Source: Dirinaria sp. TL-2023a (lineage: Eukaryota). Taken from it: a DNA stretch of 50,533 nt. Positions 1,289-21,807 of the stretch are shown one piece after another. Each line of letters starts with the position of its first letter. Position 1 is the stretch's first letter. Where the stretch lies: assembly GCA_051941275.1 (NCBI GenBank), contig JAVEBF010000022.1, forward strand, positions 1 to 50,533. The letters run 5' to 3'. The position numbers and the translations under genes are program-made. The notes under the pieces are model-generated. The model worked only from the letters and a program-made list of their open reading frames with translations. It searched no databases and had not been told where the DNA came from.

Positions 1289-1664
1289 GAATAATGAAAA
1301 TTTCGTTCTCGTTTCGTCTCTTTTTGTCTCGTAACTCAGATCGTGCATCGTCATAATAAAACGCGTCAAGTCTTCGTGCATCATCACGTTAAAATGCGTT
1401 TAGTTCTCGAAATTCAGTCATGTTATCAGATCGTGCATCATCACGTTAAAATGCGCTCAGTTTTCGAAATCTCAGTCATATCTCGAATTTTGTCTCGATC
1501 TCATCTTTCGTCTAGTCTTCGCCGCGACAGTCTATCATTTGATATGATCGATTGATTCGTTATCTCTGCCTCGCTCAATTCTCGTTCTGCCTCGTTTAGT
1601 CTTCGTCTCGTCTCACCTGATACTATAGCTTCGCAGAAGCTCAGTCTTCAAGAGAAGGAGCTAC

Positions 1665-8277: not shown

Positions 8278-9127
8278 TTACGAAACTTCCGCCCATTCCT
8301 CCAGGGCATCAAACAGCTTCCCCCATAGTCCCTCATGCCACCCTCTCAGCTCCTCCCACTCCGGCAAACAATTCCGCATCATCTGCAACCACCCGCCAAC
8401 AATTAAGTCCGCATACATTGGCGTGCGCCCCTCCAGGAAAGGACCCTCGTCCCGGCGCACGAACCACGCTGCCAGCCCGCTTCCCAGGGCTGCCTCGAAT
8501 GCGGCAAGCATCTCCTTCCGCTTTTGGCTCCCCTGCGGAATCTCCAGATCTTCCCACCGCGACACACCCATACGGTGCGCCATATCGGCTTGTGAGATCT
8601 CGGCGGTTGCCGGATCGAGAGGCATGTAATACCCCGCGAGCTGTACGCCATTGAGGTAGAAAAGCGTATCGACGTGCGCGTTGAAGGTACGGTGAAGCGC
8701 GAGGCTGTTTGGTGGAAAGAGCAGTGGGCGTCTTCCTTCGGGGGAGGAGTGCCTGTTATGTAAGTGTATGGCAATGTCGAACGAGTCGCCGACGAAGGTA
8801 CCCTCCTGCTGCATCATGGAGGTGGTGGTCGCGTCGTGTAGGATGGGGAGTGTTAGGAAATCAGTGCCATCCGGGTGCTTACGGCTGGCAGGGACGCCGA
8901 GTTTCTTGCGCGTTGCGGCGACGTCCGGCAATGGGACCCAAGTGGTAGAATGGGGGGTATTGGTGAAGTTAAGGGCATAGCTGTGGCTGGCATTAATTGC
9001 AAGACGAGGCAATGAGGAGGGAAGATTTTGTTATGTACCGCGCTTTCCACGGGTTGGGAGCGAAGGGCCGGATGGGGGGCCCTGAGGCGATGTCGTATAG
9101 TGTCATGATTGATTTCTGGGCGTCCAT
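8278..9127 (-). CDS. Glutathione S-transferase-like protein, 2 exons
   Basis: TLYDIASGPPIRPFAPNPWKAR|YALNF...WVPLPDV...TLPIL.D...VGDSFDIA and PFLEGRTPMYADLIVGGWL. Intron 9038-8981. Confidence 0.88.
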
Positions 9128-9760
9128 TCTAGTGGTGAAAGATGGTATTTGCTGAAGGTGTCTGAGTTTGATGCTGCAGCGTCCATGGCCTTAGGAACGT
9201 CTGTTGTCTGGGGACTAAACAATAGATAAGTATAACTACCAACAGGCTGTCCTGCAGCAGGTCAGCATTAAAATGACTCATTTTCGTTCCTGCAGTATGA
9301 CCTCTGACTCGCATAACCCAATCGAGCGTCAATGACACTAATGTTGGCCAAGCATACATGCAATATGGCAGGTTTGCTCATTATCATCAACGTAAATCTG
9401 TGAGCATATGTCTTTGCGATCTTTCTATTGAAGCTAGACAGCATTCTGGAAGCTGCTTTGATTGCGTTAACGCTTTAAGCAACACTGTGTTATTACATTT
9501 AAATATATTCATCTTTTCTCAAGATACTCGACTTAGGTATTCAACAATGCATCTGTCTCGTTCATCTTCACGATTTCCGTGCTACCTCAGAGTTAGTGCC
9601 ACATGATGATGCGTGCGAAGATTTTCTCATAATATGTCTCCATTCTGCGGCTTAAAATAAAGTTGGTTGACTTCTGATGTTTTTTTCTTTTTTTTTTTTT
9701 TTTTGAAGAATACTCGGATTCACCCCCTTTCTTGGTTCACCTACTTCCTTGATAGGGTTA

Positions 9761-9940
9761 CTCGTACTCGCCTACTTTCTTGGGTCACCTACGGTACTTT
9801 CTTGGGAGGGTTAGGGTTATCTCCACCAAAATTCTTCCAACCCTACCTACCTTACTTAGGGTTATGGGGCTCTTGGTGGGATAACCCTAACCCTCCCAAG
9901 AAAGTAAAGTAGGTGACCCAAGAAAGTAGGTGAGTACGAG
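9761..9940. mobile_element. MITE with ~70 bp TIRs and TA target duplication (Tc1/mariner type)
   Basis: TA|CTCGTACTCGCCTACTTTCTTGGGTCACCTAC..TACTTTCTTGGGAGGGTTAGGGTTATC is mirrored nearly perfectly at 9880-9940, which is followed by TA. Confidence 0.85.
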
Positions 9941-10012
9941 TAGGGTCAAAATATTCACTCCATCAAAATGTCTTTCATCATCAAACAATCTGATGCTTAT
10001 GACTGTCTAATG

Positions 10013-10221
10013 TGCATCAATTTAAGAGATGACTGTGAAACATTTTTTTTCCCAAATGCTCGATCGATGTCAAATTAAGCTTGAATTGCATTATACACGT
10101 CAGATGATCATTTCGCATCTCTCGAAAAGACGATGTCTTGTCGCGATCGACAGTTTCGCAACGTAAGTTCGTATCGCAGATTCTTCAGATCGATGACATC
10201 TCTGACTCTTAAATTGATGCA
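10013..10221. mobile_element. Possible older MITE with 16-bp perfect inverted termini
   Basis: TGCATCAATTTAAGAG (10013-10028) and CTCTTAAATTGATGCA (10206-10221). The interior is CC/GG-poor. No clear TSD. Confidence 0.4.
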
Positions 10222-10796
10222 TCTGAGGAAGCAGATTATTTGACGTTGCAAAGCAAGTTCAAGCTCAAGCTCACAACTTGATTCCGCCCGGACAACACAT
10301 CATTTCAATTTTGCTGTCGTGGCCTTCTCCTCCGCTGTACACGAGTATTCTCTAATGTGAAGATGAGAGGGAGCTCCTAAACTAATGCTCCCGTACTCAA
10401 TATTTCCTTTTTGCTCGGGACAACCCTTGCTTGAGGGGGCATCTACCGCGATATGAGGGCTATTCCGTCCGAGGTCTGTATTTATTCTTCAATATCTACT
10501 TTTTTTTTGTAATCACTACATGGCCAGGTATATCACCACTATGCCCCTCCCTCAACCCCACAAAAAAAAGTCGCCGGGTCGAGGGAAGTAATGCTGATCA
10601 AGGGAGGCTTGCCTCCTACCTAGGCGCTGCCCTATAGAACGCAGATTGAAAAATCATGATAGAAATGAAAGAGAATCTATATTCCGCGCATGATACAAGT
10701 ATAGGTACAAGCTTTTATCCAAACTCCTGCACAGTTCCATCAATGCAGTCGCGGCCCGACCTAAAGCGTGCTTCTCCTCTACCTCCTGTCCGTTTG

Positions 10797-12749
10797 CTAC
10801 TCCTCAAGAGCCTCCAAAGCAGCAGCAGGTATCTTTGTCTTGAGAGTATCCTTCGTGGGCAAAGGCGATGAGGGGATTGACTCTGTGTCCGAGGGTATCT
10901 GACTGGTGCAGCGCGATGATAAAGTCGACTCCGTGTCTGATGACGCTTCACTGACTGTGACTGCGACCGGTGTCTTTTCAGTCGCGAGATCAATGCGCAA
11001 AGCGCTCCTGAGAGCTTCGACCTCATCCGTTTCCACTATGTTTGACAGCACCTCCGTCTTTCCCGGTACCGATGCTGGATCAGAAGCTGGGACACGTATT
11101 ATGTTGTCTAGCACAGTGGTCTGAGCGTCGGCCGCATCTTCGGCTCCCTTTGCAGTCTTCTCAACCGGTGTAGCCCCGACTGCTCCAGTGTAGAATTGCT
11201 GTGGACGCCATATGCTCGTCTTAGGTTGAGCTACAGTCGCCGGTGAATGTCAGTAGAGTATCTTGATAAATACTTCCTCACATTGGAGAGATTTACTCAT
11301 AGCTTCTCGCCAGTGTGCCATCATGCCTCCAGATCTCATGAGCGCGATCATCACTGGGACGAATGAAGGATCAAATTCCCTGACCATTCGTATCCGTCAG
11401 CAACAGTCTACAGACCAGGTGTAATGCTTGGGAGATAAAGCGCACTCAAAGAAGATTCAAACTCACAGCGCAGTATATATTATACCAATAAATAGGTCCG
11501 CATTTGCTTGGAGGCTTCGAGAGGTGAAGTATTCATCTTCCCTTGCAATGCGATCAATCTCCATTGCGACTTCCACCAAGGGGTTTTCGAGTCGAGATCG
11601 TTCAGGATTCGCGCACCGAAAATGACCCTGGGATCGACTGTATTGAACATCCGATGACCGTAGCCGTAGAGTTTTGCTTCTTTCCTCTTGACTTTGTTGA
11701 TGACATAGGGTACCATTTTCTTGCTGCCGATTGCTGCTAATGACTTGAAGGAGGCTTCGGCCGCGCCGAAGTGAAGTATACCGTAGCCTGAAGACAAAGC
11801 AGATATGAGGCACGACAAAGGATCAGAGAGTGTGGAAGCTCCAAGAAGAAACGCTGATGTGGAGTTTGTGTGCCCCAGATCCGCACCGAGCGCCCATATA
11901 CGCTGGATTGCGCGGATGGCATTCGGGTCAGGTTTTCCTGTGCCCTTATCTACCTTACCCATCATGATGAGTAGGTTGGAGAGAAAAGAGCCATCAGCTT
12001 CGACGCCAGCAAATGGAGCTCCATTACGATGAGAGGCGGCAAGTCCTGCACAGACTTGGAATGCCGCCAATGTCCGGATGATTGCCTTGTCTACCAAAGA
12101 TAGATTACCCTGATATAAATTTCGACCGGAATATGCTGGAATACTCTTTGGATCTTCACCCAAGTATGCGGCAAGACCGGCAATGATCATTTGCATTGGT
12201 GCAGCCGTTTTACTGCATGGACAAGATCAGTGATTGGTAGGATAACCGAATATAGGATGTGGAAAAGTACATACGGGAATCCGCGAATGACTCTCTTAAC
12301 ACTTTCCGGGACTTCCTGCGCCGCTTTGACAAGTTCGGAGCGTAATGCCTCTTTCTCGACAGCAGAAGGCCATCGATCCCATACTAGAAAGTGGACGAGG
12401 TCCTCGAACCCAGCTGTCTGCCAGAAGTCGGCAATGTTCTGACCTCGATACTGCACAATTCCTTGAGCACCATCACTGTCACCACATATTAGTTCAAAGC
12501 GGAGGAGGTATTGGACCAACACAGTTATGGTACGTACATAAAGGTTATCCTTGACTCCGAGACGGCAGTGTTCTTGAATCCTGGATCAAACAGACGGAGG
12601 CCATTTCCAACTTGGTCAGCCAAGTCCGAATCTGTGACAGGGCCCTTGATGGATTGGAACTCAACGGCGTTGATAGTATTGCGGTGGATGGGTATCTGAT
12701 ATTCGAGGGAAGTCCGCGAATCAGTAACGTATAGTACACCTTCAGACAT
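10797..12749 (-). CDS. Secondary-metabolism-type citrate synthase homologue (alkylcitrate-synthase-like), with an apparent 1-nt frameshift
   Basis: GLRLFDPGFKNTAVSESRITF|IDG, ASTLSDP, GYGILHFGA, YGYGHR...DPR, ANAD, MAHWREAM and IWRPQQFYTG. Four GT-AG introns. The frame switches at an A4 run (11584-11587). No mitochondrial presequence. Confidence 0.88.
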
Positions 12750-14219
12750 GATGATGGCTATCTCAAAAGGCCAGACAGCGTCAAAAGTAGAAAGGGTCGT
12801 CTCAATGCTGCTGTAAAGTATGCTGAAAAGGAAGGAAGAAATCCATCTTATATACCTCGAGGGCATCTCATGAGGAGCACATGTCACAACCAAAGCGACT
12901 GTTTGCTTATTCTCGAATCCCCTAGTTCATCCCCTTCTGGACCAACTAACCCTAAACCCTTCAAGTGTCACGGTTTCACTCCGGTCACCCAAAGTTCATG
13001 TTAAAATCTTCGTGTGAGCTGATCAAAAAATGACATTGAGAAAGTTCCCCGTCTTCCTCCACCAAAGTAGGAGATTTCCAGCAAGATCAGTCATACCTAG
13101 AAATTTTCAGACACAGAAGCGAGCAATTCGTCCACAGCCATAGACTTACTCGTGAAAGGCTGCCCTTCCAATCGAGCTGACGTGGATATAAGGACATTGG
13201 AACATTTTCCGTCCGTCTCGTTCTCAGCTGACTAGTGTAAATGTCCTTTCGGAAAAAGCGGCAAGAAATCTGTGGATGCTTCAACGCACAGCTGCGCCGC
13301 ACTATGTCTAAAGGCGGATGATCATTCAACAGATCTTACTGAGCTTTTTGACGAATGGTCGGTTATTTTCCCTTTTCTTTTCTTCCGTGTTGAGCTGACG
13401 TGAATATTAGAGAACGGCATATTTTGGGGGGAAAAATTGAGGTGTGGATACTCGAAATAGCCTTACAGCAGCATCATCGATGCTCAAGGCAAGTAGGTAG
13501 ATACGAGGTTGATTGGGCAAGACCACCTAAGCCAACCGACTAAGCCCTACCAAGGATCAAAGATGGAAGGTTCGCCATAATGTGTCCGCTAGGATAGGTT
13601 TCCACATGCATGGAAAGCGCTAGACGCTGAGTAGAGTGTAGCCGAGTATGTATCCCGAGACTTGACAGCTCCTATGCCTACTACTTGTGAAGGTGATACT
13701 CGAAGCATCCAGCGCAACAGCAGCGTCCAATCGGAGCAAACGCCTTGAGGGGCAAGAATGCACAATAAGCGGTGTAGGACGAGAATGCCATGGGTGCAAT
13801 GTTGCATATCGGAAAAAGGGGTAGCACTAAGCGATGAGGTGGATACATGACGGACATGACTCTGACTTGTCCTGTAAGATCATGCACATAAGGTACCTTA
13901 CATTAGTGGAAAGGAGAACCGGAGTGGGTAATTGTGACGAGACCGAAAGCCATGCTCGGCGATGCAAGCAGTACGAGGTGGCCTATCAAGGTACCTTGGG
14001 CATTCATGGCCAACTTCAGGAAGCGAGCTAGTGCCAAGTTCGAATTGCCGATTCTGAACAGCGATGATATGACAAACTCTATCTCAGAAAGCTGATGCTA
14101 CTGTATAGACCAGGCAGAAATGAGAAAATAACTACCAAGCTTATATTGTATTGACGCAGAAGCGCCTGCATATAACTCACAGGAGAGAGGGCAGAAAGAA
14201 AAATATCAGACATCTCTGA

Positions 14220-15892
14220 CTAGTCGGTGCCCCCTGCCGCGAATTGACTCTTGGCCCTTAGCCGTGGCCCGTGTTTCCACAGCACAAAAGGTGCGGGGAC
14301 ACCTAGAATTATGGCGAGGAAAGCTATCAGACTACTTCCCCAACCATAATCTAATCGATCATACATGTACGGCGCGAACAGAGGAAAGCTGAAACCGGCT
14401 AGAGATCTTAAGAAAGTGTTAGCAGCGCCTGCCGACGCAGCGTAAAGAGGATATGTGTCAACCGCGTATGTCTGTGTGCACTGAGTGGCAACTTTCATGC
14501 CCACTCCAAAGATTGCTAGTCCAACGTTGGGGATGATCCAATGGAGATGCGCTTGTGCGCTCCAACCGTAGCAGAAAATTCCCAATGGGACAAAGATGGA
14601 CCCTGGTACTAATAGAGGAAGGCGGAATTCGGGCCGTCCAACGCCTTCGCCCCTTCTCTCTTTCAGGAGTTGGTATATCACATCGTTGATACGAGCAGTT
14701 GATTGCGTGCCAATTAGGTAGCCGATACCGAGAGAAATATAGTTGAGCCCTGCGATACCGATCGATTCGTGATAGCGCGTTGTCCACAGAATTGGTAGAG
14801 TCGTGAGAACCAGGTAGACGACACCGTATAAGAAGGCCATGTAAAGTGCAAGGATTTGGATGATGGGCTGCGTCCCTAGCAATATGAATGGTCGCACAAG
14901 CGCAGCCTTGAGGATTTGAGACAAGGTGCGGTTAGGAGTTTCCCACTTTGTGTGCCAGGATTGGTTTCCAGTACTGTTGCGTAATTTCCTAGACTTATTG
15001 CCAAGAATCTTAGGCGGGTAAGTTTCTCGTAGGAAGAAAAGTCCCAGAAGTTGGACGAAGCCATCGGTAATTGAGACCGCCCAGAAAACCCATCGCCAGG
15101 TGGTACGTTCTGTGACAAATCCTCCCACAAGGGGCCCAAGCACTGGACTGAGCAGAGGAGCTAAGGTGTAGATACCAATAGAAACTCCACGCTCTTCAGC
15201 AGTCCAACAATCAGCGAGTATACCGCCTCCGATCGTTAAGGGGGCGCTTGATTGGCATTAGTGTACTTGCACTGCGGATAGCAAAGACGTTGAGGACTGT
15301 TCAGAGACATACCTGCCCCCGAGGCCAGCAAGAAATCGAAATGCAAGGATTTGACCCGTGCTCTGAGCGAACCCACAGGCGGTATTGAAGATTAAATAAA
15401 ACGTATTCGCTAGCTGGAGCACGATCATTCGGCCATAGACCTCAGATAGTGGTCCGATGACGAAAGGGCCAAAGGCGTAGGCCAAAATGAAAATTGATAG
15501 TATGAGGGAGGCCACGAGGGAGCTGTGTACGTGCAGGTTCTGCGTTAATCTAATTAGAGCAGGAGCGACGATGGAGGTTGATATAGTCGAAATGCATGTG
15601 TAGGCAGAGATGACGATAGTGACGGTCCATTTCCTCCGGTAAGTCCAGTTTTTTGGATTCTCAAGATCACCAGGTCCGTCCCAGGTAACCTTTCCAGCTA
15701 AATCAGCAGAATAAATCTAGTGCTGAAGTTGCAGAACCTGGCACTCACAAGGTTGGGATCGCTAAGGGAGGACACAAATAGTGGCTCCTGGGGAAAAGAC
15801 CTTTTTTCCGCATCACCATTAGATTCGACATTCGACGAGCGTCTGCTCTCATTAGAGTTATTTGTCCCTTCAGGAACGGTGACTCCTGTCAT
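14220..15892 (-). CDS. MFS multidrug transporter, DHA1 family
   Basis: VTWDGPGDLENPKNW, GPLSEVYGR, WRWVFW, LRETYPP, RPEFRLP, HWIIP and FPLFAPYMY. Two introns. Confidence 0.95.
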
Positions 15893-17144
15893 GCTGCTAG
15901 GAACAGTGGGCGTTTTCCATTAACCTCACACTTGAAATAAACCAGGAACCGATTTGAGCGGCATCAGCCAAAGATGGGGTCTGGAAGGTGTATCGCATGA
16001 TTACGATGGATATGAAGGGTATGAGGCCATCTTAGTCCACGCTAATTAACACTAAAGACACTCTCAACACCTTCCGATGGCTGGAGAAAAAACCGCCGTC
16101 CAGAGAAGCTTCTCGCACTCGTTCGGAAGGACGCATGTAGTAAGCCTTGAAGAGGAAATGTCAGCTGAGGGCCCATTATTGCTGCGACTCTATAACGTCA
16201 AACTTCGGTGAGTCAGGCACACCCGAAGTTTTGGTGGGTTGCAGGAGGCTGCTGATACTGTAAGCTGGTGAAGTTGAAAATACCTTAGGTTCTCGGTTCG
16301 CTCCTCGGCAGCCGGCAGCTAAAGATACCGCTGAAGTAAGGTAAGGTAGTAGGCATTGTCGGCGTTCTCGCATTAAGTTAGGCCGAGAGGCCTTCGCGAA
16401 CCTTGTCAGGAAGGCCCTGTTCTTGCTCGCTTACGGCGCCCCCAGCCCTTTCGACAGATGGCATCCGGTTCATCTAGTAGGGGACCTGCGGTTAGTGAAA
16501 AGGTAAGGTAAGGTATCCTCGTATCTTACCTTCGTCTCGTATTTTAATCATACAAATAAGCGAATAGGACGCGCCCGGCTCTCCTCGCACCTGCTTGGCA
16601 AAACCTCACTTGTATAACAATTCCAGGCAAGGTGGTGTAGCGTTGATTACACTAGTCACTCAATTACGTTTTAGTAGCTGGGTTAGAGTAGACCCTACCT
16701 CAGATATCGATGACTAGTTTCTTACAGCGATTAATCCACTGTCGGCGTTGGGCCATCATGACATATCACACCGGCCTTCATAAGCTTACGAAGCTCACGA
16801 TATCTGAGGCGGTGCAATATGTACGCTCGGTATGAGCAATAAGGTTCTGAAATTTAGCGTTGGCGGATGCAAATGCTGGCTGACATGCTACTTTTGTGTT
16901 GCATGAGTCTAGATGCAAGTTCAAGAATCCTAAGATGACGGATTTTGCACTGCTCAGTCTATGCAACGTTGCCTTTTTCCTGCAGGGAGCCTCATGTATC
17001 TCTCTCCAACTGCTGAGCTGTTACGACGTCCTGACTATATACACAAATCTCCCTTTATGAGTTTCTTTTGACGCTCCTAGCTTCTCTTGATCCACTCTGA
17101 ACGTTGACCTCGATTTCCTGAAGCTCACGTTTCCCCACACAATC

Positions 17145-19125
17145 ATGCGCACAATAATTGAGTCTTCCGCTGGAGAAAGCCCAGAGGTTGATCAACGTGG
17201 CGGAAGACTCCTCCCCACTTGGATTGACAAAGTCGGACTGGAAACCCCTGACAAAGTTTGGGCTTCCGTGCCTCGATCCACAAAATTGAAATATGGGTTT
17301 CGTGACCTGCGATATCGTCATCTCGTTGCTGCGATTGATGCCGCGGCATGGTGGATTGAGTCGGTTATTGGTAGAAGCACAAACTTCGAGACAGTGGCAT
17401 ACATGGGGTATATAGCTGATATGGCGCACCCTTATCCCGTTTAACTAATTTTGGTCCTCTTCGAGCATTCCAGACTTACGATATAATATTATCCCTGTGG
17501 CTTTGATCAAGACAGGACACAAGGTAGTATTAACTTATGCCATGGATGGTTTCGTCAGGGAAACCGTACACTCAACTGATATTTGCAGACTTTGTTCATG
17601 TCTCATCGAAACACTGTCGCAGGACATAAGGAGCTGATGGAGAAAGTAGGTCTCAATGGCTTGTCTGTCTTTTTTTTTTGAGCTTACCAGACCCACTTGC
17701 AGACTCAATGTAGTACCTTGATCTACTCGGAAGGAGTGAATAGTGATCCTCTGATCGCTACTGGAGGAATGAGTAGCTTCAGAGTGGACAAACTTGACGA
17801 TCTCCTTTTCAAGCAAGGGGTGAGGTCTTATCCATACGACAAATCGTTCGAGCAAGCAGCTAGCGATCCTATAGCTATTGTCCATACGTCAGGGTCGACA
17901 GGGATGCCGAAACCTATCGTTTGGAATCATGGCATGTACGCTGCGATAGATGCCCAAAGCATTCCATCATCGCTAGCCGGCCGCCGGAACGTGTATTGTA
18001 CGATGAAGGAGTGTGAGCGGCAGTATGTTTTTTACCCCAGCTGCAAACAAGATGTATATTCTCTATTGGTCTGACGCTACAAGCAGCTACAGCACGATGC
18101 CGATATCCCACAGTTCAGGTCTCGTCCGTTTTTTGAGAGCGATCTTCTTAGGCGTCGTTCTTGTTGTTGGCCCTCCAAATCGTCTTATTGGTCCGGATCC
18201 TGCCTCACTCGAATGCATCAACCAAGTACTTGAGTATGCGTCTGTTGATGCAGCGAACTTCCTTCCCAGCACCTTGGAGACGTTATGCAAGTCTCCCCAA
18301 TCGTTGAAACGTCTGTCGAAGTTAAGGTTCATTGGGTTCGGTGGAGGTAACCCACCTTTCCTCGGCAAAATAGTGGCAACTGTTAACGTACCATTAGCTC
18401 CATTGGCTAAGGAAGCTGGCGACACCATCTCAGCGGTCTGCAAAAACACTGTTTTGCACAATAGCCTCGGCAGTACTGATGGTGGCGCATTCGTTACCTA
18501 TGAGCCTGATCCAAGAGACTGGCAATACATCTGCTATTGCCCAAATTACAACGGCATCTAGTGGCGGCAAGCTCGTGAAGACCTCTATGAGATGGTCGTA
18601 GTGAAGGATCCTAAGCTCGAAAAGTTTCAATGTGCTTTCAAAAGCCACCCTGAGCTCCAAGAATGGTCAACTCGGGACCTATATTCCAAGCATCCCTCGA
18701 AACCATATCACTGGCGCCATGAAGCACGCATGGACGACCTTATTGTCTCAGCTAACGGCGCAAAATTCAATCCGCTCAATTTGCAAGAGCGCGTTGAGCA
18801 GCATGTAGCCGTCAGATTCGCTCTCGTCGCTGGGAACCATCGTCTACGACCCGCACTGATCGTGCAACTGCGAGATCCGTGTGCTAGCGAAGCGGAACTG
18901 GCAGCGCTTTGCGCGGAGATATGGTCCGTCGTTTCTCAAGTAAATGAGAGTATTCCAAGCCAGGGAAGAGTTATGGAGTCGCTTATTATGTTCACAAAAC
19001 CTGAGAAGCCGTTCCCCTTGGCGGCCAAAGGGAGTGTGCGGAGGAAATTTGCAGAGGCAATGTATCATGAGGAATTGGATGCGTTATACAAGGCTGCGGG
19101 ACCGGAGGCGGGCTATGGGTTCTAG
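17145..19125 (+). pseudogene. Stand-alone NRPS-like adenylation (AMP-binding) enzyme with an in-frame TAG
   Basis: P-loop HTSGSTGMPKPI, LGSTDGG, TRDLYSKHP, RMDDLIVSANGAKFNP and AKGSVRR. Five introns. TAG at 18559-18561 (YNGI*WRQ) with the frame conserved after it. No T or R domain follows. Confidence 0.8.
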
Positions 19126-21807
19126 AATGGAGTTACGGACTCGAAGGACGGCCGGAACACTGAATAAGAAGAAGTCAACAGTTTGGCAAGCTTTGTGAGC
19201 GCTCGCAAGGAAGAAAAGGAAGACTACATTTGAGCAATTAAAGTGAGATTTTAGTAGTTGTGGAAAAACAAAAACAAGACAAAACAGAAGAGGTTCGAGC
19301 ATAAGCTCGGACTTGAATACTAGAGCCTATGGGTAACTGCTTAGGATGCAGCTGGAAGTGGGAAATGATGGCTCGAGAACCCCAGCTTCGAGATAGGCCT
19401 TGTTCTAGCTCTAGAAAGTCTTCCAAATCTAACATCTCGGGCTAGATACTCACCAAATATTAATCAATCTCACTGTGACCACATTTCTGGATCAGCAAGC
19501 CATCTCTTCGCCTTAAAACCAGTACCGAAACTTTTATCCTCCAGGTACCAGTTGCCAATGCACGAAACACGGCTCATCTGAGCACTCAAAGGACGCTGCG
19601 GTACTGTCGAACCAAGCGCGAGAGAGGGGGGGAGGAGAACCAGACAGATATCGGGCTAGGAGCCAACGCTGAATCAGCGTAGGCCTGCAGGACGATAAAG
19701 ATAGACGGAGCGTAGTAGGTAGAATTTGTACAGAAGCGGGAATAGACTTTGACTGATGGCTATGACTTCGTGGTTGATAGTGATGCTTACTAAAGCCAGA
19801 GGCCTCATTCTCTGTGTCCCTTACATCCTCCACCTTGGATGTAATGCATATATTACGCTTCTAGAAGCAGGCCACTGCAATACTCCCTTTTTTTACCCAT
19901 AATGGGTTGCTGAACCCCCGGAAACGCACTTTCTACAAATCCCGGTTTTCTGCAGTGTACTTGAGCAAGGAAATCGATTCAATTAGCATTGAAAGGACTT
20001 GAGAGTATGACATCTTGAGAGGAACGAAGTCCGTACCGAAGGTACATTGACCTTGCTAGCACTGAAGTCAACTTCAGTACTCCTGGAGACAATCGAATTA
20101 AGAAGTGTCAGCACCATGCCCGTTCGTGTATGGGGAAGTCACACGACTGAATTTCTCTTTGAATAATATGTTCGCATGAGCCGGTTCTTGTTGCATCCTT
20201 TGTGCGATTTCCACGTCTGTTGTAATTACCCTCAGAGTTTCGGATTGCTCGTTAATCGGGAGTCCTTTCTTGCCTGTGGGATGTCCCTCACTAAGCGCTC
20301 TACAACATTTTGTGCAGCCCATGGTAGAAAGTTGGGCATTTCCATAGACTTGATGAATGATACCCGCATTGGCAGCGCAAATCGGTGCAATAAGAAAGCA
20401 GAGAGTCCACTTACATTCAGAAGCCTGATCCAGGGCACTCTACCTTCTCCAGAAGAACGACCCCTTGGCGTATCGTCCACGAAATCCTCAAGCAAAAAGC
20501 CTAACACCCAGCAAAGACATCGCTTTGGCCAGCCTACGGCCTCGAATGCGAATGTTTTGATAAAGTCCCCGTTCGGTCACATCACACGAACCTTCTAATA
20601 TATCTTATAGAGGACTATTTTTCCAATATCTGTAATGACTTTTGTTGGAAATCTCAAAATATCATTGACGACAATATACACCGCATAACCTCTACTATAT
20701 TTCTAGCTCATGAGCCGGACGCTATCGCCTCCTTGGGACTGGAGCCTGACTATCGCTGAATAGGAGATATAGGTACTGTACCTTGACTAAAAGGCTTCAG
20801 TGTACGACGTAGTATTAAAATGCGGCCTTCGTTGCGACCGTAGGCCTTGCAATGACTTGATATTGATTAAATGGAAATTGGTTTTGAGTAAACGTGGCTA
20901 TGTTAATATTTTCGGAGTACCTGCGTAGACTTCTCAGTAATCTAAGTACCGATTTTGCACTGAATAGCTGTCTTCTGATCTAAACAATGGAACAACAAAC
21001 GTACTGCTACGCACTCAAAGCCGACTTATGCTCATTGTGGATAAGCTGCTTGTTGCCTTTGTAAGATTACATTTAAGGAGACTGTGGGCTCCTGCACAAT
21101 CAAAGACTTTTGCTGCTTTTTGCACTGTGGCCGGGGAGTTAAAAGTGAAAATCCGACAAATCAAAATTTTAGAGCTTTGCCTACCTAGAGACTCTTCTTT
21201 TTCCATCTCTTCTGCCTCTACTCGCTGTACTATACATCCTATCTTTAATATCATCAGAGAGATGAGAGACTTACTGTCTGACTTCAATATGCATCTCGGT
21301 CAAAATGAGAATTGGTACGGTGATTTTTCACAATCTTAATCAGTGTGGCCACATTTACTGTAAATCGCGTCAGCAATCATGATTGTGCTTTAGTATTTGG
21401 GCTCTGGAGAGCCATCGCGATTGTCAGAGCTATTAGTGCTCGCTCTCCCTCTCTTCCAATCTTCCTAAGTCAAATCTAGTCCACCTCATTAGGATTGAAC
21501 CAGGATGTACGAATTCCGAATGCGAGGAGATATAGGAAGTCATGAAGCTCAGAAATAAGTTTTCATCACATGGTAGCAGGGATCTTAGGCCATGCTTATC
21601 TCATGTCTTCTACTCACTCTCATCATTGCTCCAATAAAGTGGGCAGACCTGTACAGGCGTCCCATATTCAATGGACGTTCTGTTCGCAATTTGCCCTATA
21701 CTAAAGAGGCATCGAATAGATGCCAGTGACTTTTGAAATATGACACAACATTATCAAATTCATTGATTCTGTGCCGGTTGGAAGGAACATGCTTTCTTTC
21801 TTTCTCT

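Follow-up and report, generated by a model that had tools for sequence, protein, structure and literature searches.

A citrate-synthase-like gene, an exporter gene and a stand-alone adenylation enzyme gene side by side in the lichen fungus Dirinaria: a candidate alkylcitrate locus

Genes at the locus and interruption of two of them

We analyzed contig JAVEBF010000022.1 (assembly GCA_051941275.1) of Dirinaria sp. TL-2023a, which was examined over its entire length of 50,533 bp and is subsequently designated the window. The contig belongs to a metagenome-assembled genome of a Dirinaria species, i.e. a lichen fungus, as had been supposed in an earlier note on this DNA. Subject of the analysis are three neighboring genes, which code for a citrate-synthase-like enzyme (CS), an exporter of the major facilitator superfamily (MFS) and a stand-alone adenylation enzyme (A enzyme), and which the earlier note had proposed to act in one small biosynthetic pathway. 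Exon models were built with guidance by homologues, and every modeled intron across the three genes is of the GT..AG type and 57-87 nt long. The features are the following:

10797 to 12749, minus strand: CS gene, five exons (12749-12538, 12475-12275, 12212-11467, 11379-11297, 11230-10797)
11580 to 11583, minus strand: frameshift in the CS gene, a run of four C that is one base too short to keep the frame
14220 to 15892, minus strand: MFS exporter gene, three exons (15892-15749, 15689-15313, 15246-14220), 515 aa, uninterrupted
15893 to 17144, no strand: divergent spacer between the start codons of the MFS and A genes, 1252 bp
17145 to 19125, plus strand: A gene, five exons (17145-17407, 17466-17523, 17589-17645, 17703-18022, 18087-19125), 578 codons
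18559 to 18561, plus strand: nonsense lesion in the A gene, in-frame TAG as codon 391; the relatives carry Glu at this site (NGIEWR)

Each of the three genes was recognized by Pfam as well as by its splice model, in agreement with the claim of three adjacent genes, and the exporter gene and the A gene are indeed transcribed divergently across the spacer, the open reading frames (ORFs) of which yielded zero Pfam matches. The CS gene was located by tblastn with the Xylographa protein P0001 and by Pfam, which matched Citrate_synt (PF00285) on the minus-strand ORFs 11480-12226 and 12187-12585. It extends from the ATG at 12749 to the stop codon at 10797 with introns of 62, 62, 87 and 66 nt, and reading through the break yields a protein of 558 aa in the splice model. 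In case of the exporter, MFS_1 was matched on ORFs 14220-15257 and 15258-15716; the stop at 15258-15260 that separates both ORFs falls within an intron beginning with GTATGT and is harmless. The A gene has introns of 58, 65, 57 and 64 nt and its stop codon at 19125, and domains AMP-binding (PF00501) and AMP-binding_C_3 (PF23562) were matched on plus-strand ORFs 17682-19125.

The frameshift leaves the CS coding sequence at 1676 nt (remainder 2 on division by three), i.e. one nucleotide short of a multiple of three. The first stop of the assembled gene is encountered at codon 382, and the frameshift precedes the codon of the catalytic Asp, which is residue 377 in the read-through. Seven relatives have no frame break at the C-run (P0051, P0052, P0053, P0056, P0057, P0161 from Physcia stellaris, and P0162); P0162 is from a 1358-bp contig, the same size as record 1 of the lichen-metagenome run X1. 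Likewise, the position of codon 391 of the A gene is occupied by Glu in P0015, P0017, P0018 and Physcia P0166.

Relative-rate comparisons assessed the divergence of both genes. Over 206 shared columns of the CS alignment, identity to the outgroup P0052 amounts to 187 positions for the window, 188 for Physcia and 187 for P0051. For the A enzyme, 243 of 318 columns are identical to P0017 in the window as compared to 248 in each of three relatives. Apart from the lesions, both genes are conserved as well as the intact copies of their relatives. Since the window lineage shows no extra divergence, the lesions either arose recently or are artefacts; long-standing decay of the locus is not claimed, as no acceleration is seen. 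Between recent inactivation and artefacts of the assembly or of the sampled population, we lean somewhat toward real inactivations, and an artefact is less probable for the G-to-T substitution behind the TAG than for the frameshift.

At this locus, the public gene models cannot be relied upon. The NCBI model for CS (P0050, 381 aa) finishes in the shifted frame, and the model for the A enzyme (P0014) dodges the TAG by means of an artificial intron, which deletes conserved core sequence. The A enzyme of Physcia stellaris (P0166) is misnamed "3-phytase A", and its model omits two short exons, which code for the conserved segments PDLRY...GHK and SHRN.

Properties and relatives of the three proteins

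The read-through of CS is 85% identical over 558 aa to the Physcia stellaris protein P0161 and has no N-terminal extension relative to its homologues. By alignment, it carries a citrate synthase fold with the putative catalytic His, His and Asp, which are found in the motifs LHFGA, GYGHR and ANADL at residues 284, 321 and 374, respectively. Roles of catalytic, oxaloacetate-binding and CoA-binding residues are taken from PMC8697804.

For comparison with solved structures in the PDB, the intact Physcia orthologue was employed as query. The best relatives are the peroxisomal citrate synthase 9x0i (E 4.5e-70) and bacterial type-II citrate synthases including A. aceti 2h12 (E 1.4e-55), which served as template for the model of the maleidride enzyme BfL2 (PMC8697804). 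Methylcitrate synthases follow at 1e-13 to 1e-17 and mitochondrial citrate synthases at 1e-4 to 1e-6. Because the mitochondrial enzymes score far below the peroxisomal and bacterial type-II enzymes, CS is, judged by these scores, not of the housekeeping mitochondrial type, which upholds its description as an atypical citrate synthase. The fungal alkylcitrate-synthase-like clade shows E-values of 1e-49 to 1e-70 to bacterial and peroxisomal citrate synthases and of 1e-13 to 1e-17 to bacterial methylcitrate synthases; PMC8851701 places the group nearer to the latter.

A phylogenetic tree was computed with FastTree from 99 sequences and 206 columns, comprising the window protein, 25 named fungal proteins, 59 other hits and 14 of 80 metagenome loci; no sequence had to be excluded because of its length, and no experimentally characterized alkylcitrate synthase was included. 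Fungal and bacterial enzymes are split with a support of 0.92. The window CS falls into a lichen core clade of 35 tips (support 0.80), together with proteins from Physcia, Cladonia borealis and Xylographa. The lineage of this core is sister (0.90) to a clade of 18 tips (0.98), which contains Talaromyces atroroseus, Aspergillus taichungensis (a model fused to PEBP and MFS domains), Cadophora and one protein of Lecanora helva. A third fungal clade (0.96) unites Xylaria, Diaporthe, Teloschistes and Ramalina. The genome of T. atroroseus contains a putative maleidride cluster, and the citrate-synthase-like enzymes of secondary metabolism are reported to constitute one monophyletic group of alkylcitrate synthases (PMC8851701).

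The grouping is mirrored by a signature at the first catalytic His. In the alignment, both the window clade and its sister clade have LHFG here and miss the Asn that follows, and LHGG is found in the third fungal clade and in all bacterial sequences shown. BfL2, which in vitro accepts hexanoyl-CoA and hex-2-enoyl-CoA for reaction with oxaloacetate, has GPLHFG, whereas the enzymes from pig, E. coli, Thermus and Pyrococcus in the supplementary alignment of the same paper do not (PMC8697804). A second position distinguishes the lichen enzymes: the auxiliary oxaloacetate contact is Leu in the lichen core clade, Asn249 in BfL2 and His in ordinary citrate synthases, and Asn249 of BfL2 occupies the position that contacts the C-4 carboxylate of oxaloacetate (PMC8697804). 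In the window, this Leu is part of a GADLGH segment (about 11880-11900) with a His two residues later. The C-terminal tail of CS (10797-11180, about 128 aa) extends beyond the Pfam domain, is rich in Ala, Thr, Ser and Glu, and is conserved with Physcia stellaris; Xylographa CS proteins have a tail of different sequence. By phylogenetic position and BfL2-like signature, CS would thus be classified as an alkylcitrate-synthase-type enzyme, encoded without any of the usual partner genes.

A scan of metagenomes with the CS alignment yielded 588 confirmed stretches, of which 80 loci were kept (best identity 39%, nearly all bacterial); none of them belongs to the window clade. Loci L001 (on an 813-kb contig) and L002 group with other fungal clades, and their contigs are probably fungal.

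The A enzyme retains TSGSTGMPK, LGSTD, TRDL, RMDDLI and PFPLAAKGSV, which we take to be the A3-, A5-, A7- and A8-like motifs and the segment with the A10 Lys, respectively. With its AMP-binding core and C-terminal subdomain, it has the predicted make-up of an ANL-type adenylation domain as found in proteins resembling non-ribosomal peptide synthetases (NRPS), interrupted in the window by the TAG at codon 391. It is 39% identical to residues 12-539 of P0020, a protein of adenylation-carrier-reductase (A-T-R) architecture. Neither a carrier (PP-binding) nor a reductase (NAD_binding_4) domain is present, tblastn with P0020 gave no match near the gene to its residues beyond 551, and no Pfam match lies downstream of the stop codon at 19125, i.e. 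there is no remnant of a T or R domain. The enzyme ends directly after the A domain, and Physcia and three other relatives share this end point. Close relatives are P0015 (85%), P0016 (84%), P0017 (68%) and P0018 (63%), all with the C-terminus right after the A domain. The remaining 31 of 36 matches are at most 45% identical and mostly A-T-R proteins of about 1050 aa. By this comparison, the A enzyme branched off from NRPS-like enzymes that activate carboxylates, has no carrier domain and is not of the fatty-acyl-CoA-ligase type. It lacks carrier and reductase domains and therefore would not be able to carry or reduce its substrate by itself. The designation as a stand-alone adenylation enzyme accordingly stands in so far as only an A domain is encoded.

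The MFS protein displays 14 overlapping hydropathy peaks in a crude count, corresponding to about 12 hydrophobic segments. It contains GPLSEVYGR and GPLVGG, which we presume to represent the MFS motif A and the antiporter motif C, respectively. MFS_1 domain, the predicted 12 transmembrane segments and both motifs are those of a putative DHA1-type exporter. The protein matches P0186 from Xylographa trunciseda end to end, and a protein atlas gave generic MFS names only.

Co-location in other genomes and surroundings of the locus

In Physcia stellaris, the A enzyme (KAG6989743.1) and CS (KAG6989745.1) are both encoded on a contig of 222,331 bp with one accession in between. This spacing is mirrored by the tags of the window, _000426 for CS and _000428 for the A enzyme. 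Relatives of CS and the A enzyme were further found on contigs of matching size (329,053, 13,351 and 51,899 bp); on the 51,899-bp contig, CS is 83% and the A enzyme 63% identical to the window proteins. The three genes are thus found together again in Physcia stellaris and, very probably, on these three contigs. Contigs of run X1 tile positions 9000-21000 of the window at about 88-92% identity, and this relative is too close to be informative.

At larger distance, CS and MFS are found together. Xylographa trunciseda encodes CS (MMC11_001721) and MFS (MMC11_001723) on a contig of 186,415 bp, as judged by the matching contig size. Its exporter is among the 6 best of 12,158 MFS relatives and 54-62% identical to the window MFS, and for its CS fragment the identity to the window exon is 71%; the CS of X. 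soralifera is 62% identical over 511 aa. A contig of 561,292 bp combines CS (72%) and MFS (73%). A second look-up of clusters with MFS representatives revealed no further contig matches. Talaromyces and Aspergillus have models in which CS and MFS are fused; the MFS halves of these models are 23-28% identical and not orthologues, and were not counted as conserved pairing.

CS is widespread in Lecanoromycetes, and in Cladonia borealis, four Xylographa species, Circinaria and Letrouitia no close relative of the A enzyme was detected among proteins of at least 329 aa, shorter pieces not having been searched. Most likely, the conserved unit consists of CS and MFS, and the A enzyme would have been added in the lineage of Physcia and Dirinaria. 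Close relatives of the A enzyme are few while CS is widespread, and the A enzyme would therefore not be an obligatory feeder of CS. Conservation at depth is seen for CS and MFS.

To survey the domains encoded on the contig, 209 ORF translations were compared with Pfam, namely a set of 40, a set of 83 from the flanks (at least 50 aa) and a set of 86 from elsewhere (at least 85 aa). Zero matches were obtained for polyketide synthase (PKS), fatty acid synthase (FAS), PrpD/MmgE (methylcitrate-type dehydratase) and decarboxylase domains among these translations, which confirms the earlier statement that such genes are missing here. The contig terminates 10.8 kb past CS, and a partner gene could lie farther out on that side. 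The flanks (5.2-8.3, 9.0-10.8 and 19.1-22.9 kb) yielded no Pfam match except one below threshold and may be called gene-poor as far as Pfam shows. Elsewhere on the contig, Pfam detected a cutinase, a fungal rhodopsin-like protein, a glutathione S-transferase, two methyltransferases, an L7Ae-family ribosomal protein, UcrQ, Band_7, a Zn_clus protein, a Tle1-like lipase and a haem peroxidase.

Upstream of CS and of the A gene, a 12-mer TTACACTAGTCA occurs, which contains the palindrome ACTAGT. Its copies at 13229-13240 (minus strand) and 16647-16658 (plus strand) precede the start codons of CS and of the A gene by 480 and 487 bp, respectively, each on the strand of its gene. The 12-mer is absent elsewhere in the window even when one mismatch is allowed, and two or more matches were found in one of 100 shuffles. 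The sequences flanking both copies do not align, and an excess of 10-mers shared by promoters was tested against mononucleotide shuffles only. The 12-mer may be a shared cis-element or may have arisen by chance, and it is regarded as a lead only.

One sizeable repeat lies in the vicinity:

9759 to 9942, no strand: palindromic element resembling a miniature inverted-repeat transposable element, 184 bp, with 63-nt arms that are 95% complementary and a 58-nt loop

It is located on the CS side and adjoined by a run of about 25 T (9681-9705). The contigs of run X1 end with loose ends or diverge at this site (9681-9942), and because of these breaks the palindrome is read as a repeated or mobile element, as the data suggest. 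No comparable repeat is present on the side of the A gene and there are no tandem repeats near the three genes; the picture of a locus flanked by repeats is not borne out in this form. A 40-nt direct repeat in three copies, spaced by 33 and 57 nt, is found at 1341-1470 near the start of the contig. The only ATCTGATAA box of the window (1423-1431) adjoins these repeats. With ATCWGATAA as the assumed consensus of the iron-repressor box, this single box far from the three genes is at chance level, and the idea of a citrate siderophore was dropped.

Possible pathways and comparison with known systems

We tentatively favor, at slightly less than an even chance, the view that the window carries the Dirinaria copy of a CS-MFS pair of Lecanoromycetes, which makes an alkylcitrate-type acid and has received the A enzyme as a lineage-specific accessory. 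CS, as a cytosolic enzyme of the fungal alkylcitrate-synthase type, would condense an acyl-CoA with oxaloacetate to a citrate-type tricarboxylic acid, most likely an alkylcitrate. Since there is no PKS or FAS nearby, the acyl-CoA would be supplied by primary metabolism or by a synthase encoded at an unlinked locus. The DHA1-type exporter would release the product from the cell. The A enzyme would adenylate a carboxylic acid, which could be the acyl substrate, to be transferred to CoA thereafter, or a carboxyl group of the product; in either case the core reaction would be independent of the A enzyme. Of the condensation-and-export pathway put forward in the earlier note, the type of CS is backed by its clade and by LHFG, but the role of the A enzyme as feeder is weakened and two of the genes are broken. 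The product of caperatic or norcaperatic type named there would be pure conjecture.

Several observations weigh against this view. The assembled copies of the CS gene and the A gene are both broken, and the lesions could be artefacts. Synteny among relatives within the Caliciales may simply be inherited, and matching contig sizes and consecutive accessions are indirect evidence. The tree contains no characterized alkylcitrate synthase, and the node uniting Lachnellula, Aureobasidium, Circinaria and Letrouitia with the lichen core has weak support (0.30). The partner may differ as well: the Leu at the auxiliary oxaloacetate contact speaks for the possibility that CS uses a different keto acid. 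The lichen core clade is widespread and unusually conserved (76% identity between Physcia and Cladonia over 429 aa), a pattern that would fit a general metabolic role better than a lineage-specific metabolite. In the literature compared, characterized alkylcitrate synthases are accompanied by PKS or FAS, alkylcitrate dehydratase and decarboxylase, none of which is encoded on the 50.5-kb contig. The exporter belongs to a very large family (12,158 relatives at E up to 0.001), the name of which says nothing about the substrate. Finally, close relatives of the A enzyme were found in only four other lineages, beyond which the next matches are A-T-R proteins of at most 45% identity, and no close solved relative exists (best PDB E-value 4e-5).

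A bolder version of the same view posits a two-gene, PKS- and FAS-free module conserved among lichen-forming Lecanoromycetes, made up of an alkylcitrate-synthase-type enzyme with an altered keto-acid pocket and a dedicated exporter. It would form long-chain alkylcitric acids of the caperatic, norcaperatic or agaricic type straight from primary fatty acyl-CoA, and the carrier-less A domain would have been recruited to it in the lineage of Physcia and Dirinaria. We consider this version rather improbable. Searches of full-text literature returned no paper that ties a citrate-synthase-like gene to lichen chemistry or any gene to aliphatic lichen acids; if the long-chain reading were true, CS could be the first gene assigned to these acids.

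As a different explanation, the three genes may share no pathway at all and may be neighbors merely by descent among housekeeping genes, with too little time for rearrangement. This we deem unlikely, about as much as the long-chain version. The contig is otherwise of housekeeping type (L7Ae family, UcrQ, Band_7, methyltransferases), a core synthase, tailoring enzymes and a regulator close by are missing (the Zn_clus ORF is 12 kb off), and the best-documented relatives of the trio are close ones, with run X1 reaching about 90% identity in the gene-poor flanks as well. However, the CS-MFS neighborhood is also present in Xylographa trunciseda, at the much larger distances given above and with an exporter that ranks among the 6 best of 12,158 relatives, and the 51,899-bp contig pairs CS with an A enzyme of only 63% identity.

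Still less probable, in our view, is the minimal three-enzyme pathway of the earlier note, in which the A enzyme acts as obligatory feeder by converting a free fatty acid to the acyl-CoA for CS, and an alkylcitrate of caperatic or norcaperatic type is exported. It would account for the adjacency of the genes, the divergent arrangement of MFS and A genes, the trio in Physcia stellaris and probably on three more contigs, the adenylation core motifs kept up to the A10 Lys, and the 12-mer common to the upstream regions of CS and the A gene (at about -480 and -487). In addition, BfL2 takes only CoA thioesters (PMC8697804), and AMP-CoA ligases, which adjoin alkylcitrate synthases in several maleidride clusters, are proposed to make the acyl-CoA substrate (PMC8851701). 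Against an obligatory role speak the lichen fungi listed above that have CS but no close A relative among the proteins compared, and the A enzyme is of the NRPS-like PF23562 type, unlike the fatty-acyl-CoA ligases of maleidride clusters. It also evolves much faster than CS (63% as compared to 83% on the 51,899-bp contig). Primary metabolism would supply fatty acyl-CoA without a dedicated ligase, and the literature examined shows no chemistry tying Dirinaria or Physcia to caperatic-type acids.

To the same low degree we credit plain secretion of an organic acid, in which CS would be a cytosolic citrate synthase proper, using acetyl-CoA and oxaloacetate, MFS would export citrate and the A enzyme would be unrelated: the closest solved relatives are true citrate synthases, the wide spread and high conservation of the clade in lichens fit a general physiological role, and overexpression of CitB in A. 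niger raised itaconate (PMC4965889), but LHFG is common to BfL2 and the putative maleidride-synthase clade and missing from the bacterial, pig, Thermus and Pyrococcus enzymes compared, the sister link to the clade containing T. atroroseus has a support of 0.90, and Leu at the auxiliary oxaloacetate contact is unexpected for an ordinary citrate synthase.

A cluster finder that relies on a core synthase would pass over the locus. If alkylcitrates or secreted citrate are the products of the CS-exporter pair, the pair would provide a short and testable route to lichen acids without known genes, and in case of the alkylcitrate reading it would be an example of an alkylcitrate synthase fed by primary acyl-CoA. 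With two of the three genes interrupted here, studies would better start from intact orthologues, e.g. from Physcia stellaris.

The closest known systems are BfL2 from the pathway of the maleidride byssochlamic acid and the AkcB/CitB enzyme of the alkylcitric acid cluster of A. niger. CitB/AkcB, a citrate synthase of the cytosol, shares its cluster with an MFS gene (PMC4965889, PMC7338620). The cluster-borne CitB has no targeting signal, and the authors credit the raised itaconate titres upon its overexpression to cytosolic citrate synthesis (PMC4965889). The window CS shares with these enzymes the bacterial-type citrate synthase fold and the catalytic His, His and Asp, with BfL2 the LHFG at the catalytic His, and with the A. 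niger cluster the nearby MFS gene; its lineage is sister to the clade of the T. atroroseus protein. It differs by the lack of PKS, FAS, hydrolase, alkylcitrate dehydratase and decarboxylase on the 50-kb contig according to Pfam, by its position in a separate lichen clade without characterized member, by Leu instead of Asn (BfL2) or His (ordinary enzymes) at the oxaloacetate contact, by the C-terminal tail of about 128 aa and by the frameshift in the assembly.

The A enzyme resembles the AMP-CoA ligases of maleidride clusters in that an adenylate-forming enzyme is encoded beside an alkylcitrate-synthase-type gene, but it is an NRPS-like A domain (PF00501 plus PF23562) and kin to A-T-R proteins. 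With the fungal A-T-R NRPS-like carboxylate reductases (PMC9605436) it has a homologous A domain and C-terminal subdomain in common, but unlike these it stops after the A domain. The exporter, in turn, is like fungal DHA1-type MFS exporters of organic acids and drugs in its MFS_1 domain, its approximately 12 hydrophobic segments and its motif-A- and motif-C-like sequences.

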